Positions 34,195-38,840 of a stretch of DNA of 44,487 nt are shown piece by piece; positions within the stretch are counted from its first letter, which is position 1; the number at the start of each line of letters is the position of its first letter. The notes under the pieces were generated by a model that was not told the origin of the DNA, ran no database searches, and saw nothing but the letters and a program-made list of their open reading frames with translations. The stretch lies in the IMG/VR virus record IMGVR_UViG_2718218131_000009, positions 1 to 44,487 of that record, one strand, 5' to 3'. Source of the stretch: a virus. Lineage: Duplodnaviria; Heunggongvirae; Uroviricota; Caudoviricetes. Position numbers and translations under genes: made by a program.

Positions 34195-35342
34195 TTGCGC
34201 CCCCTTACCTCTGAAGGGTTCAGTGACAGATTTATGAGACTGGCCAGTACCGCCGCGTCGTTGATGCGGTCATACAGACTTATAGCCAGCGGGGATTCGG
34301 CTTTTGCCAACATGGGATAAAGCTGCTGCAGCCAGACTTTGTGGATTACCGACAAGTGGGAGTAAAGCACGCTGGCGTTATGTGCGGCATCGCTCAGCGT
34401 GGATGGCCTTGAAAGCTGCTTTTCCATCTGGTTAAAGGCATTGATGTATGCCTCTTTGAACTGGGCAGCACGTTTCCCCGTGAAACCCATAGCAAGAAAC
34501 GCAAAGCCGTCGCGGGTTATTTGATAGCAAGGTAGTTTGCGGCCTGTGCAATCGGTGTAATCACTCACCGAAAAATTGCGGGCAGTGAATGATGCGGAAC
34601 ATTCAAGCGTGCGGATCTTTTTCAGTACATCGTCATGACGTTTGGAGAAGAAGTTGGCAACAGCCAGGGATGAAGTAACAGCCTGACCATCAACGATGGC
34701 AATTTCAGGTTGAGTGAGGGTTGGGATCGTAGCCATGATGGCAGCCTCTTTGGTGATTTTTAATAACTCACCACCAAGGCTTTCCACGACCTTATTGGTG
34801 GTGAGACGTACAGGGGTGGAAATACCGGTCACCAAAGAACCCGGCCCAACCGAAGTTGGCCCTGCACGCCCCACCATAATTTGGGCGTAATGCTGCTCAT
34901 GACACAAAAAAACCGCAAGAGCGCGGTTGTGCGCTTTGGTGAATTCCGGGTTTCCACGCCCGGCACCCGCTTTATAAGGTGCCTGAACAGTGTAACGTCC
35001 CGGAATGGCAGAATCAATGTGCTGGTGGTCCTTCACACTCAACAAAATCACGCCTGAATTTCCACAAAGGACTAAAGCACTCATGCGGGTAGTCTTTGCG
35101 AAGATAGATAACGCGCTGCGTTTCTGGCTCCCAACGAATAACATGGACATAAAGCCCTCTTCCGTCACGAAACCAGCGGTTAAGTTCCTGCACAACTCGC
35201 CCCCCACAGTCAGGTAAAGTTCTCTGTGGTTACTTACAGCCAGGTGATTTGGTAATCTGCATTCATGCCGTAACAACAGGTGTTCAGCGACGCTGACCAC
35301 CAGCTGTTGCGACAAACGGTTATTTGCCGTTAAACTGTTCAT
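34191..35342 (-). CDS. Rha-family regulatory domain protein with ~200-aa N-terminal region
   Basis: C-terminal half (from M203, ATG at 34736) is IPTLTQPEIAIVDGQAVTSSLAVANFFSKRHDDVLKKI, a Rha domain. The upstream 202 codons are in frame and begin with an ATGA overlap to the CII-like gene. Confidence 0.6.
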   Translation of the reverse strand: MNSLTANNRLSQQLVVSVAEHLLLRHECRLPNHLAVSNHRELYLTVGGELCRNLTAGFVTEEGFMSMLFVGSQKRSALSIFAKTTRMSALVLCGNSGVILLSVKDHQHIDSAIPGRYTVQAPYKAGAGRGNPEFTKAHNRALAVFLCHEQHYAQIMVGRAGPTSVGPGSLVTGISTPVRLTTNKVVESLGGELLKITKEAAIMATIPTLTQPEIAIVDGQAVTSSLAVANFFSKRHDDVLKKIRTLECSASFTARNFSVSDYTDCTGRKLPCYQITRDGFAFLAMGFTGKRAAQFKEAYINAFNQMEKQLSRPSTLSDAAHNASVLYSHLSVIHKVWLQQLYPMLAKAESPLAISLYDRINDAAVLASLINLSLNPSEVRGRK

Positions 35343-35902
35343 GCGTTAGTTTCTCCACAGACACAAAACGCCACGACGCCCGGAGCTGCACACTCGCGGG
35401 CGTCACTCTTTTCTGGAGCGCAAAAGATTTTGTAGACCAGTGCTGCATGCTCCTGGAGCTTCGAAATTGACAGATACAACTCATCATTAATTGCTGTCTG
35501 CTCGTGTGGCTCCACTACCCCGTCTTCGATTGCCGAACGAATCTGCTTTGAGTAACTCCCGATCTGTTCGATGACTTCCAGCAGGCGCTGGTTTATATCG
35601 GCGTTCTCTACTTCCTCAATTTCAGGAAGCGATACAAACACCCCACCAGCAGACTGTGCGACAGCATCCGCAATGTAGTGAGTGCCAGCCGCGCGCTGTA
35701 AAATCATTGCCCATCCCAGCGGGAAAATCTGATCGCCATCTGCACGAAGGCGGTTGAATAAAGCGTTCTCTGTTACATCCAGCCACTCAGCAGCTTCAGC
35801 GTACCCCCCCGGCAACGCCGCGATAGTTTTTCTGACAGCTTTCACGTACCACTCAGGCTGTTTTTCTACTTTCCAGTGATGCTTACCCACGGTTAGCCTC
35901 AT
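35339..35902 (-). CDS. CII-like regulator (YdaT family)
   Basis: 187 aa, downstream of the cro-like gene in the rightward operon, matching the YdaS/YdaT arrangement of the Rac prophage. Confidence 0.65.
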   Translation of the reverse strand: MRLTVGKHHWKVEKQPEWYVKAVRKTIAALPGGYAEAAEWLDVTENALFNRLRADGDQIFPLGWAMILQRAAGTHYIADAVAQSAGGVFVSLPEIEEVENADINQRLLEVIEQIGSYSKQIRSAIEDGVVEPHEQTAINDELYLSISKLQEHAALVYKIFCAPEKSDARECAAPGVVAFCVCGETNA

Positions 35903-35933
35903 CGTTCTGTGGTTAAAAATTGAAGGTGTTCTG

Positions 35934-36134
35934 TTAATCTTTCGGATAGATATCCGGTCTTAAGTCAGATTTCGTAATTGCACCTGACGTGCATTGCTCA
36001 AGTTTTTTAGCCAGCACAAAACTGGCTTTTTTATAACCATTGAAAACCAGCCGTAAGTAGCCTGGTGTTGAGCCAACTTTTCCGGCCAACTCGCCCTGCT
36101 GTTCTTTGGTTAAAGAGTCCCAATACGCTTTCAT
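35934..36134 (-). CDS. Cro-like HTH regulator (YdaS-like)
   Basis: 66 aa. ATG at 36134 with a GGAGG RBS, divergent from the repressor gene. Confidence 0.75.
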   Translation of the reverse strand: MKAYWDSLTKEQQGELAGKVGSTPGYLRLVFNGYKKASFVLAKKLEQCTSGAITKSDLRPDIYPKD

Positions 36135-36224
36135 ACAATATGTACCTCCAATATACATATTACATGATTGAGATGAACCTTCAAGATACTTGTACCCTAT
36201 CGGTACAAAGGTTTTAATTTCGTT
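36135..36224. promoter_or_regulatory. Immunity-region operator/promoter (OR-like)
   Basis: Divergent intergenic region containing the palindromes TTGTACCctatcGGTACAA (36190-36208) and ATATGTA-n9-TACATAT (36139-36160). Confidence 0.55.
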
Positions 36225-36899
36225 ATGAAAACAGTCCATGACATCCGGCGGTCTAACGCCAGAAAACTGAGAGATGGTGTTGGCGGGAATTCTTCCTTTG
36301 CCACCATGATTGATCGCGAGCCAACCCAGACCAGCAGGTTTATGGGAGATGGTGCTACTAAAAATATCGGTGACAGCATGGCACGGCACATCGAAAAATG
36401 TTTCGACCTGCCTGTCGGATGGCTTGATCAAGAACACCAGACAACAAACATCACAAAAAAACCTGATGTTTCAATTACTAACAAACAAATAACGTTAGTC
36501 CCTGTCATATCATGGGTACAGGCCGGAGCATGGAAAGAAGTTGGCTATTCTGAGGTTGATTTGAGCACAGCAGAAACGTATCCCTGCCCTGTACCCTGTG
36601 GCGAAATGACTTATATCTTGCGGGTGATTGGTGATTCAATGATTGATGAGTACCGCCCGGGAGACATGATTTTTGTAGATCCTGAAGTCCCTGCCTGCCA
36701 CGGTGACGACGTTATTGCATTGATGCACGATTCAGGCGAAACCACCTTCAAGCGGTTGATAGAAGATGGAACACAGCGTTATCTCAAAGCATTAAACCCA
36801 AACTGGCCTGAGCCTTACATTAAGATTAACGGTAATTGCTCTATAATTGGTACAGTGATTTTCTCGGGAAAACCAAGAAGATACACAATAAAGGCCTAA
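36225..36899 (+). CDS. CI-type repressor (HTH plus S24 LexA-like peptidase domain)
   Basis: C-terminal VIGDSM Ser nucleophile and TFKRL Lys. N-terminal HTH ending in PVGWL. Confidence 0.85.
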   Translation: MKTVHDIRRSNARKLRDGVGGNSSFATMIDREPTQTSRFMGDGATKNIGDSMARHIEKCFDLPVGWLDQEHQTTNITKKPDVSITNKQITLVPVISWVQAGAWKEVGYSEVDLSTAETYPCPVPCGEMTYILRVIGDSMIDEYRPGDMIFVDPEVPACHGDDVIALMHDSGETTFKRLIEDGTQRYLKALNPNWPEPYIKINGNCSIIGTVIFSGKPRRYTIKA

Positions 36900-36913
36900 T
36901 CAATATTTATGAA

Positions 36914-36934
36914 CCTGCTTCGGCAGGTTTTTTT
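36914..36934 (+). terminator. Rho-independent terminator after the repressor gene
   Basis: CCTGC-ttcg-GCAGG followed by TTTTTTTT. Confidence 0.65.
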
Positions 36935-36938
36935 ATGC

Positions 36939-36967
36939 TTGACAATGTACCCATGAGATACATAATG
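36939..36967 (+). promoter_or_regulatory. pL-like promoter with overlapping palindromic operator
   Basis: TTGACA, then a 16-17-nt spacer, then CATAAT/ATAATG. The perfect palindrome AGATACAT-a-ATGTATCT overlaps the -10 element. Confidence 0.5.
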
Positions 36968-37404
36968 TATCTAAAAGAAACATAACACAGGCAAGATTAA
37001 AACAAAATTTGGTTGTAACACGGCGTATGGCACATGCGTCGTTAGCGGTCTGGGGACGTTAAAGGGGACAATCCACTCCTTGCTCGGGCAAACAAACCAG
37101 GTAGCCGGAATGTGCAAGTCAATGATGATGCTGATAAGACGCCTAACCAGCGTGGCGGTTCGGTTTGACACCTGGGAAGAGACCAGGGTGCAACGATGAG
37201 GGCATTTATGGAACCGCGACAAAGTGTGGTGCCGTAACTGGCTAAGTGCTCTCAGCGTTGTGGTGAATGCGCAGGCTGATGCGCGAAAGACATTGCAGCT
37301 ATTGCGGAAAAGAGCTGTTCGGCGGGGCAATTAAACGCCCGTGAGAGTCTGAAATAACCGCAAGCCGGAGATCAGCACCGGTCACCACAACAGCCACTGC
37401 TTTG

Positions 37405-37450
37405 GCGGTACCAGTTTGTACACTTGCTTCCGGCTGGTACCGCTCTTTTT
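37405..37450 (+). terminator. Intrinsic terminator inside the early-left leader
   Basis: 10-bp stem GCGGTACCAG/CTGGTACCGC with a 19-nt loop, followed by CTCTTTTT. Confidence 0.55.
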
Positions 37451-37587
37451 ACAAAACAGAGAAGAGCATCACCGGACGACGGGCTCATAACCCAATCCAT
37501 CCGGGCGGCTGCCACCGCAGGTGTTCTTCTCTGTTTTGTGGAGAAACCAACCGACCTTGCAGGGTCGATATGATGAGGAGCAGCAAA

Positions 37588-37950
37588 ATGGCTAGCGAAC
37601 GCAGTACTGATGTGCAGGCATTTATCGGGGAGCTGGACGGCGGCGTATTTGAAACCAAAATCGGCGCAGTTCTCAGTGAAGTCGCTTCCGGTGTGATGAA
37701 CACGAAAACCAAAGGGAAGGTCTCACTCAACCTGGAAATCGAACCATTTGATGAGAACCGTGTGAAAATCAAACACAAACTCTCATATGTTCGCCCGACT
37801 AACCGCGGGAAAATTTCCGAAGAAGACACCACCGAAACGCCGATGTATGTCAATCGCGGTGGTCGCCTGACTATTCTGCAGGAAGACCAGGGACAATTAC
37901 TGACTCTTGCCGGTGAACCTGACGGAAAACTCCGCGCAGCAGGTCATTAA
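37588..37950 (+). CDS. Hypothetical early protein (positionally equivalent to CPS-53 yfdP)
   Basis: 120 aa. GAGGAG RBS before the ATG at 37588. First gene of the leftward early operon. Confidence 0.6.
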   Translation: MASERSTDVQAFIGELDGGVFETKIGAVLSEVASGVMNTKTKGKVSLNLEIEPFDENRVKIKHKLSYVRPTNRGKISEEDTTETPMYVNRGGRLTILQEDQGQLLTLAGEPDGKLRAAGH

Positions 37951-38015
37951 TATCGTTTTTAATAAACTGATTATTTCTCTCATCACTGAATATTTTTATA
38001 TAGTGAGGACTTATT

Positions 38016-38840
38016 ATGTCTCAGAACTTAGACGCAACCGCAATTAATCAAATCCATGCCCTTATTTCTGCTCAGGGTGTTAATGAAATTATCAGTAAGA
38101 TTGGTGCCGATGCTGTGGCATTGCCTGAGAATTTCCGCATTCATGATCTGGAAAAATTTAATTTAAATCGCTTCCGTTTCCGTGGTGCGCTTTCCACTGC
38201 CAGCATCGATGACTTTACCCGTTATTCTAAAGATCTTGCAGATGAAGGCACCCGCTGCTTTATCGATGCCGATAATATGCGAGCCGTCAGTGTGCTTAAC
38301 CTGGGTACTATTGATGAACCAGGTCACGCAGATAACACCGCCACCCTCAAACTGAAAAAGACAGCACCGTTCTCTGCTCTGTTGTCTGTTAATGGCGAGC
38401 GTAACTCCCAGAAGTCACTGGCAGAATGGATTGAAGACTGGGCCGACTACCTTGTGGGCTTTGATGCTAATGGTGACGCTATTCAGGCAACAAAAGCGGC
38501 TGCGGCGGTCCGTAAAATCACGATTGAAGCAAACCAGACCGCTGATTTTGAAGATAATGACTTCAGCGGCAAACGCTCCCTGATGGAGTCTGTCGAAGCG
38601 AAGACCAAAGATATTATGCCAGTGGCATTTGAATTTAAATGCGTTCTGTTTGAAGGTCTGAAAGAACGTCCATTTAAATTACGCCTCAGCATTATCACTG
38701 GCGATCGTCCTGTACTGGTTCTGCGCATTATTCAGCTGGAAGCAGTGCAGGAAGAAATGGCTAACGAATTTCGTGATCTGCTTGTTGAGAAATTCAAAGA
38801 CAGCAAAGTAGAAACCTTTATTGGTACTTTCACCGCCTGA
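38016..38840 (+). CDS. yfdQ: DUF2303-family protein (YfdQ-like)
   Basis: 274 aa. The size and the gene order yfdP-Q-R-S-T match the K-12 CPS-53 prophage. Confidence 0.7.

Follow-up and report, generated by a model that had tools for sequence, protein, structure and literature searches.

What allows the early-left genes of a lambdoid phage to be expressed when a transcription terminator lies in front of them and no N gene is present? The question is raised by IMG/VR virus record IMGVR_UViG_2718218131_000009, a lambdoid phage genome of 44,487 nucleotides (nt), or ~44.5 kilobases (kb), which is referred to here as the window, and more precisely by the gap of 690 bases between its repressor gene and its early-left genes. 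A preliminary description of this gap, made from the sequence alone, had noted a promoter, a terminator and an inverted repeat, and had proposed an RNA-based mechanism such as a put-like element, an attenuator or a small RNA (sRNA). Comparison with related phages indicates that the interval is highly structured RNA under selection, holding ~430 nt of conserved structured RNA, and that it is a non-coding leader made up of conserved, separately mobile RNA modules, here termed A, B and C; module C comprises the terminator tL0 and the hairpins downstream of it. Module B is predicted to have the shape of a transfer RNA (tRNA).

A search of phage genomes with BLAST returned 178 records, and sub-segments of the leader each matched different phages. 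The preliminary description had viewed the interval as one leader structure; its non-coding, structured character was upheld by stems which covary across relatives and by the lack of a conserved open reading frame (ORF), but the single structure is actually a mosaic of the mobile modules A, B and C. The stretch from the early-left promoter pL to the B-like element is a swap site, occupied by RNA module A in the window and by other cargo in phages SfV and SfIV, where small ORFs and an antisense gene (protein morons) are found instead; the B-like element, the terminator and the hairpin are kept in SfV, SfIV and ST64B, while the upstream cargo is exchanged. A conserved protein gene within the interval was looked for across lineages and none was found: the length of the 39-codon ORF at 37080-37199 changes by amounts not divisible by three, and stop codons interrupt it in the other lineages, while indels of 21 and 25 nt at the apex of the long hairpin break any ORF that spans it. 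Of 5,426 complete Escherichia coli genomes, 2,664 contain some part of the leader and 1,136 contain 80% of it or more; the only RefSeq annotation under the leader match in these genomes is yfdP.

The modules also escaped the standard catalogues. In a scan of 35800-38200 against Rfam 15 (E up to 1) the best match had E ≥0.13, far under gathering scores; neither regional nor whole-window scans matched A, B or the long hairpin, the whole-window scan yielding only C4 and isrK, at other positions, and ARAGORN reported no tRNA or transfer-messenger RNA (tmRNA) gene in the window. The prophage sRNAs Pas, AgvB, AsxR and STnc100 were considered and rejected, being unrelated late-region sRNAs which have Rfam models. 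A literature search by core sequences found them in none of the papers searched; these RNAs may be among the ~10,000 unnamed candidates in a catalogue of viral RNAs, which describes nothing specific about them. The leader architecture and the B family appear to be undescribed and unannotated, although tRNA-like RNAs, phage leader RNAs processed by ribonuclease (RNase) P, RNA-based antitermination and attenuators are already known as kinds.

Covariation among 175 unique scaffolds indicates that module B is a real RNA structure, and a tRNA-shaped one. The inner 7 base pairs (bp) of its closing stem, P1, were paired in 98-100% of sequences, compared with 49-77% when partners were shuffled at the variable positions, where double changes filled 74, 66 and 26 cells; a register shift reduced pairing from 0.90 to 0.30-0.44, and a non-circular test in which P1 was defined by anchors gave the same outcome. 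With the 3' half fixed, hairpin P2, set off from P1 by a 3-nt joiner (AAU), yielded the compensatory variants GCUCA/UGAGC, GCACA/UGUGC, ACGUA/UACGU, GCGAA/UUCGC and GCCGG/CCGGC, among others, while the GCUGA core of its loop stayed constant as the stem varied. The central insert measures 2-249 nt across the family (median 73). The 7-bp covarying stem abuts the 5-bp stem of hairpin P4, giving a stack of 7+5 bp in a four-way junction, which in our model reproduces the 12-bp acceptor/T-arm stack of a tRNA. The loops GGCUGA and AGAUCAGCA are invariant and complementary (GCUGA/UCAGC), and could be modelled as an elbow-like loop-loop contact; a canonical T-loop (UUCRANY) with a D-loop GG elbow was not found in the window's B. 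The 3' tail has the consensus A-C-C-A, with CCA at offset 1-2 in ~24% of copies, where it overlaps an optional extension of the stem. Folding of single sequences gave unremarkable z values for A and for B alone (-0.4); the case for structure in both is made by covariation and not by stability.

Among tRNA-like structures already described, such as the viral tRNA-like structures (TLS), the domain of YrlA Y-RNA and the tRNA-like domain (TLD) of tmRNA, module B shares the four-way cloverleaf, the coaxial stack of 7+5 bp, a predicted side-loop elbow and a variable 'anticodon' side. It differs from them in having Watson-Crick complementary loops in place of the T-loop/D-loop motif, and in going undetected by ARAGORN and Rfam.

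An exact copy of the B core 22-mer, GTGAATGCGCAGGCTGATGCGC, is carried by at least 120 IMG/VR contigs and by the genomes of 115 bacterial species, the latter spread over Enterobacterales, Pseudomonas, Halomonas, Xanthomonadales, many Betaproteobacteria, some Alphaproteobacteria and a few metagenome-assembled genomes of other phyla. Its carriers include phage P1, T1-like phages of Klebsiella and Salmonella (IME207), the N4-like phage IME11, jumbo phages of ~157 kb, HK620 and other P22-like phages, and one variant (96-97% identical) is common to lambdoid, P1 and T1-like phages. Other interiors occur inside the same closing stem in B' (SfV, ST64B) and in B'' (Ayreon, cdtI and Stx2c phages), and B, B' and B'' all fold to one multi-branch shape. 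P22-like phages have a B relative in the interval from nutL to N, its closing stem extended in the same way; the T-arm of this N-leader element is canonical (GAUGG-UUCGACU-CCAUC), and its D-like hairpin has GG in the loop. A 933W-type Stx2 phage carries a further variant. In two B copies (L087, ~3940-4060; L123, ~520-745) the central insert consists of tRNA pieces, a D-arm plus a T-arm such as GCGCGGGTTCAAGTCCCGC, and these tRNA-derived inserts suggest that B scaffolds have recombined with tRNA genes. In phage P1 (OP279344; L008, 1501-1649) module B is found immediately 3' of tRNA-Thr and on the same strand as the tRNA, antisense to the predicted 'plp' lipoprotein ORF (AF234172, ~69.5-69.9 kb); 'plp' may therefore have been annotated by mistake where there is an RNA gene.

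The genomic context of B was assessed over 268 unique copies. In 20% of copies an intrinsic terminator lay on the strand of B within 150 nt of its 3' end, compared with 5.3% at random positions, 10.6% upstream of B and 7.5% on the opposite strand, and the distances from B to the terminator clustered at 1-9 nt and 52-58 nt. A co-oriented ORF followed in 49 of the 50 terminator-followed copies, and a promoter matching at least 9 of 12 positions within 200 nt upstream was present in 6 of them; since such promoters were no commoner than background, the model of B as a stand-alone sRNA gene was rejected. tRNA genes lay within 300 nt of 31 copies (~3% expected), on the same strand in 30 of these, and 83 copies stood within 100 nt 5' of a start codon. 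Other copies lie between ORFs, directly 3' of stop codons. In N-encoding lambdoids, one of which has an N close to that of lambda, B, with an extended stem, follows a canonical nutL (boxA plus boxB) and precedes the start codon of N; this is the position held in the lambda N leader by the stem processed by RNase III. In HK620 the late leader contains a B copy 3' of the annotated pR'/qut and 5' of the tQ terminator (L005, 1501-1600), and a short P22-like pR' transcript would therefore carry a tRNA-shaped RNA.

A boxA-like motif, [CT]GCTCT[TC], stood at a fixed offset 5' of B in 33 of 113 unique copies, compared with 0.6% of background. No match to the 12-mer boxA consensus (UGCUCUUUAACA, up to 2 mismatches) was found in the window's leader. 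The homologous pL leader of SfIV, a phage without an N gene, has a hairpin followed by a perfect boxA of the ribosomal RNA operon (rrn) type, GCTCTTTAACAA (L130, ~1030-1060).

At least 120 viral contigs contain the invariant 22-mer by which module A was recognized, and three lineages can be told apart among them: lambdoid pL leaders, P1-like phages and Uetakevirus. In the P1-like phages it lies directly 3' of trnI and 5' of ban, and in phage P1 itself it occupies the unannotated trnI-ban gap. In Uetakevirus (typing phage 9, TL-2011b) it lies directly 5' of tRNA-Arg(UCU); in typing phage 9 the spacer AAGUGCUCUCAGC is followed by this true tRNA-Arg in the slot that module B holds in the window. 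Two of the hairpins of module A, Hz and Hy, each showed double compensatory changes at three positions with essentially no mispairs, the stem variants including CCUGG/CCAGG, CCUCG/CGAGG and GCCGG/CCGGC.

The terminator that had been placed at 37405-37450 is confirmed. Its arms (37405-37414 and 37434-37443) are 100% complementary over 10 bp and are followed by UCUUUUU, and none of 200 shuffled sequences was as stable as its fold (-21.2 kcal/mol, z = -4.8); a simple terminator scan, limited to loops of 8 nt, had missed its loop of 19 nt. Among module C homologues from phages of Escherichia, Shigella, Salmonella (ST64B) and Klebsiella (including Kp4866-6), the stem varied in compensatory fashion (GGCGGUACCAG/CUGGUACCGCC, GUCGGCGUC/GACGCCGAC, GGCGGUUAUCC/GGAUAACCGCC and GGCGGCAUC/GAUGCCGC) while the CCUUUUUAC tract remained fixed (ST64B, Kp4866-6 and others). 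These comparisons point to tL0 as a genuine, conserved intrinsic terminator. In nearly all of the homologues a B-like element comes to its 3' end (…CCACAAC) upstream of tL0. In ST64B (L455, ~1455-1480), Kp4866-6 (L456) and several IMG/VR loci the tL0 loop is enlarged and contains a strong Shine-Dalgarno (SD)-like AGGAGGAAG, for which 30S binding and a mini-ORF are both possibilities.

Downstream of tL0, the long inverted repeat of the preliminary description proved larger than noted, with arms of 25 nt (37451-37475 and 37515-37539) and a fold energy of -47.5 kcal/mol (z = -7.1); the arms covary, and a 28-nt segment between them, CGACGGGCUCAUNACCCAAUCCANCCGG (37477-37504), is invariant. In the small hairpin which follows, CCGACCUUGCAGGGUCG is exchanged for CGGCGGUGGCAGCCGCC in relatives, and the first genes differ. 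No promoter-like site was found between tL0 and yfdP, and the early-left genes therefore depend on read-through, which supports what the preliminary description had maintained; no further strong terminator was found on the + strand of the early-left operon.

Two complementarities to tL0 were examined and set aside as probably due to chance, and neither covaries with its partner in relatives. The first joins the invariant AGCCGGAA..GCAAG of module A (37103-37110) to the tL0 loop (37428-37435), which is kept in SfV and SfIV, where A is missing; the second joins a B arm segment, AAAAGAGCUGU (37308-37318), to the 3' strand and U-tract of tL0 (37439-37449), and is not kept with other B variants or with other terminators.

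The suggestion of a put-like element was put to a covariance model. The sequences of HK022 putL and putR were taken from the phage genome, with numbering consistent with PMC9378689, and were combined with HK639, phiEt88, CobraSix, S9-5 and PdC23 into a model of seven RNAs, which was searched with filters off. The model returned 90 bits on HK022 putL, 52 on HK022 putR, 97 on HK639 and 101 on phiEt88; within 36900-37600 its best match reached 7.2 bits (E = 1.9), with 6 bits on the long hairpin and no match on module A. Set against the 52-101 bits of true put sites, a maximum of 7.2 does not bear out the suggestion, and on this comparison put membership is rejected for the leader. The likenesses are those of setting: put RNAs, too, are structured RNAs of N-less lambdoids that lie right after pL and upstream of a terminator, as A and B do in the N-less window, and their sequence is likewise very highly conserved. 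Put stem I and the first hairpin of module A both hold ACGGCG...CAUGCGUCG, a resemblance by eye that the covariance model did not confirm. The two-stem put signature (GAACGNC...GUCGG...GGCGGG.UCAGG..GA.CG.CAAU) was not found in the leader, the put invariants GGCGGG.UCAGG..GA.CG.CAAU and G35 being missing from its modules. Put is a 70-nt V of two stems, whereas the window's modules are multi-branch RNAs of 135-235 nt, and A and B are also found outside early operons, beside tRNA genes. Elsewhere in the window, 35242-35341 on the - strand (also L001, 843-942), directly 3' of the cII-like gene in the right operon, matched the put model at 11.3 bits (E ~0.07); this match is conserved in Ayreon and is too weak for a putR-like call.

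The promoter from which the leader would be transcribed matches the consensus at 11 of 12 positions, as near to it as had been stated, and the same position carries a promoter annotation in Ayreon. The perfect 8-1-8 palindrome recorded there, AGATACAT-A-ATGTATCT (36956-36972), is confirmed, and is the junction at which operators OL1 and OL2 adjoin. The operator motif TGTACC-N5-GATACA has nine matches where 2.3 are expected, and eight of the nine fall within the cro/cI and pL regions, with three copies in the cro/cI divergent region (36141-36207) and two at pL (36946-36982). pL is a strong repressor-controlled promoter with two operators. These operator sites define an immunity specificity common to Ayreon, cdtI, SfV and Stx2c phages. 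The terminator of the repressor gene is annotated likewise in Ayreon and SfV.

The closest match to the window is mEp460, to which it is 99.5% identical from ~37001 onward; the immunity region differs, and the boundary of this mosaic lies near 37001, just 3' of pL. Cro-like and cII-like genes run leftward from ~36137. As previously claimed, the first early gene begins at 37588 and no N-like ORF is present. The gene starts with an ATG and its product is of the YfdP family; the ORF list and Pfam identified no N-like protein among the ten early-left products, which comprise YfdP-like, DUF2303/YfdQ, YfbR-like HD phosphatase, DUF4752, Ead/Ea22, DUF551, Rv2179c-like exoribonuclease and PrtN-like proteins plus two without a Pfam match. 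yfdP is followed by yfdQ (DUF2303) and then by a yfdR-like HD phosphatase gene. No boxB hairpin was found in the leader, where the boxA-like motif is degenerate only, and the lambda arrangement of an arginine-rich N after pL together with a boxA-boxB nut site is absent from the window. A strong, bidirectional-looking terminator hairpin at 43242-43267 (GAAAACCCGCCTTCAGGCGGGTTTTT), just 3' of the PrtN-like gene, marks the end of the early-left operon. The features of the leader and its borders are collected in the table.

Table. Features of the early-left leader and its borders, in window positions
Feature	Positions	Strand	Remarks
S24-type repressor gene	36225-36899	+	terminator follows
cI (repressor) intrinsic terminator	36911-36937	+	8-bp stem GAACCTGC/GCAGGTT at 36911-36930, then T-run
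pL early-left promoter	36939-36966	+	TTGACA-16-CATAAT, 11/12 consensus matches
Operators OL1 and OL2, 19-bp	36946-36962 and 36966-36982	no strand	motif TGTACC-N5-GATACA
Module A, multi-hairpin RNA of ~235 nt	~37010-37243	+	conserved 22-mer, compensatory changes, no Rfam match
Spacer AAGUGCUCUCAGC	37244-37256	+	weak boxA-like motif
Module B, predicted tRNA-shaped cloverleaf	37257-37391	+	covariation; no Rfam or ARAGORN match
Module B stem P1	37257-37265 with 37383-37391	+	closing stem
Module B hairpin P2	37269-37284	+	GCGCA-GGCUGA-UGCGC
Module B variable arm	37285-37363	+	hypervariable central insert
Module B hairpin P4	37364-37382	+	GCCGG-AGAUCAGCA-CCGGY, adjoins P1 3' strand directly
Intrinsic terminator tL0	37405-37452	+	10-13 bp stem, 15-19 nt loop, UCUUUUUAC tail
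Long hairpin	37451-37539	+	~21-bp stem, three-way apical junction, variable apical sub-hairpin
Small hairpin, SD and yfdP start	37551-37590	+	hairpin 37551-37567 covaries; SD GAGGAG 37575-37580
yfdP, first early-left gene (YfdP family)	37588-37950	+	ATG at 37588; RefSeq annotation and Pfam

How might these parts work together? The reading we favour, tentatively and with rather less than even confidence, is that the leader is a non-coding, modular, terminator-attenuated transcription unit which releases RNAs processed in the manner of tRNAs. After induction, most pL transcripts would stop at tL0, releasing an RNA of ~480 nt that contains A and B. The tRNA geometry of B, with its 7-bp acceptor-like stem on a 5-bp arm and its elbow, is the reason for proposing tRNA-type processing: host tRNA maturation (RNase P and 3' trimming enzymes) would excise B or use it as a stable end, and B would thus be the processing and stability module of the A-B RNA. 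The early-left genes would be expressed by the fraction of polymerases reading past tL0, the large loop of which should make termination sub-maximal; among possible cis elements that would raise read-through or guard the long untranslated leader from Rho, B is the strongest candidate. In the lysogen, tL0 would shield the early-left genes from read-through out of cI. The long, near-perfect stem is a plausible RNase III site that would set the 5' end and the translation of the yfdP message.

Several of the observations above favour this attenuated, processed leader: the tRNA genes near B on the same strand, the tRNA-Arg in the B slot of typing phage 9, the position of B in the nutL-to-N slot, and the enrichment of terminators 3' of B with co-oriented ORFs following. 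So do pL with its operators, the covarying terminator and hairpins, the lack of a promoter-like site 3' of tL0, of an N-like protein and of put, the stack of 7+5 bp in B, the T-arm of its P22-like relatives, and the retention of a B-like element, terminator and hairpin in SfV, SfIV and ST64B. Others weigh against it. Termination efficiency, processing and read-through are all inferred. The loop-loop pairing of B is invariant, so that covariation cannot support the elbow; the 3' NCCA occurs in only about one quarter of copies, where it coincides with the optional stem extension; and the window's boxA-like motif is weak, being UGCUCU only (37247-37252). Finally, the conservation of the B loops, an exact 22-mer across Gamma-, Beta- and Alphaproteobacteria, exceeds what recognition of shape by RNase P would need, and points to the binding of some other conserved partner.

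Two known systems offer precedents for processing. The lambda N leader is paralleled by the B-type element in the nutL-to-N-start slot of N-type lambdoids, and by the long hairpin 5' of yfdP, which looks like a substrate of RNase III; the window differs in lacking N and boxB, and in having a tRNA-shaped element, rather than a simple long duplex, whose processing is predicted. The putative processing of B would also be akin to that of the C4 RNA of P1/P7 and the CI RNA of P4, stable RNAs which likewise sit within the leader of a phage operon, have a closing stem resembling an acceptor stem and follow a tRNA-like logic of recognition. The Rfam C4 model does not match B, which has a four-way junction and a hypervariable arm, and we know of no antisense target for B. 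A C4 antisense RNA is present elsewhere in the window, at 34794-34881 on the - strand (Rfam gathering-level, 83.6 bits), and isrK lies beside it at 34906-34982 (-; gathering-level, 67 bits). Both are inside a mechanical ORF of 383 amino acids, the C-terminal part of which resembles the Ant/KilAC antirepressor; 34794-34982 is identified by these matches as a P1 immI-like module (isrK-C4-ant) in the right operon, 3' of the cII-like gene.

In the main rival reading, B and its boxA-like 5' flank would be a cis-acting RNA antiterminator or anti-Rho element, the cloverleaf binding RNA polymerase or Nus factors so that the elongation complex resists tL0 and Rho over the untranslated leader of ~600 nt, as an analogue of put or of rrn boxA with a different structure. 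The fixed offset of the boxA-like motif from B, the roughly fourfold enrichment of terminators downstream with co-oriented genes behind them, the occurrence of B in the leaders that follow pL and pR' as well as in tRNA operons, which are untranslated, and a put-like degree of conservation across proteobacterial classes all agree with this proposal. So does the nearly constant place of a B-like element 5' of tL0 in this leader family, in a phage class which lacks N and for which the use of put has been merely speculated on (PMC12315714). As for the rrn-type boxA, to which NusB/NusE bind, the likeness lies in the boxA-like UGCUCUUU at a fixed distance 5' of many B copies and in the presence of B in untranslated, tRNA-containing transcripts; most copies, however, lack the motif, that of the window is degenerate, boxC/boxB context is missing and binding is putative. 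Moreover, N-type phages have B 3' of a complete nutL, where antitermination is already supplied, B also occurs between ORFs deep within operons, and the tRNA-like geometry and tRNA neighbourhood would be left unexplained. We consider an antiterminator B possible, if on the whole unlikely.

Alternatively, tL0 may simply be leaky, with no regulated read-through, and the RNAs upstream of it cargo with no relation to it ('RNA morons'), for instance stable RNAs made early from pL and directed at the host or against its defences; B would then act in trans, as a decoy for a conserved host or defence factor that recognizes the top half of tRNA. The swap site between pL and the B-like element, filled by protein morons in SfV/SfIV and by RNA modules in the window, fits such cargo, as do the near-identical B variant common to lambdoid, P1 and T1-like phages, the strong conservation of the scaffold across host classes, and the hypervariable insert, which would be expected of a specificity or payload domain. 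That the stand-alone arrangement of promoter, B and terminator is rare (6 of 50 copies), that so many B copies closely precede start codons, suggesting a role in cis, and that the triad of B, terminator and hairpin is conserved, arguing for linkage, make this explanation doubtful.

A further candidate antiterminator, one that would bind polymerase or a factor, is the long hairpin with its invariant 28-nt segment; its targets would be terminators deeper in the early-left operon, either Rho-dependent or weak. The segment is invariant within covarying arms, before different first genes and in three genera, and the structure is very stable; however, it sits after tL0 and so would give no help in passing it, the operon offers no further strong + strand terminator, the put model scored only 6 bits there, and a 21-bp near-perfect stem by the ribosome-binding site fits RNase III processing or translational control equally well or better. 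We regard this as improbable. Least credible, and essentially excluded by the comparisons of sequence, are small proteins or leader peptides (e.g. 37080-37199, 37224-37334 and 37424-37573) whose translation controls termination: mechanical ORFs do exist, some records annotate 'hypothetical proteins' in the interval, and ST64B and Klebsiella terminator loops hold the SD-like AGGAGGAAG, but the ORFs of module A and of the hairpin are broken in relatives as described, stem substitutions are compensatory and not codon-periodic, and the window's candidate start is a TTG without an SD.

With put excluded and conserved RNA elements named, the early-left regulation of ST64B/SfV/mEp460/LLS phages becomes directly testable. 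Roughly every second complete E. coli genome, those with Stx2-converting prophages among them, contains unannotated parts of this leader. If the B family were a second, tRNA-shaped class of RNA-only elongation modifiers, with the cloverleaf docking on RNA polymerase, Nus factors or Rho, which we think rather unlikely, it would account for read-through of terminators and untranslated stretches in early-left leaders, late leaders and tRNA arrays; B would then be the missing antitermination mechanism of the ST64B/SfV/mEp460/LLS lambdoids, on a scaffold reused by P1-, T1-, N4-like and jumbo phages across Proteobacteria. The scaffold with its hypervariable insert is also a possible chassis for engineering. 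Module B represents a large, deeply conserved family of RNAs with the predicted shape of tRNA, spanning at least three proteobacterial classes and without an Rfam model, and, given its place in the N-leader processing slot of other lambdoids and its tRNA neighbours elsewhere, it may serve phages generally as a means of processing RNA, stabilizing it or controlling elongation.

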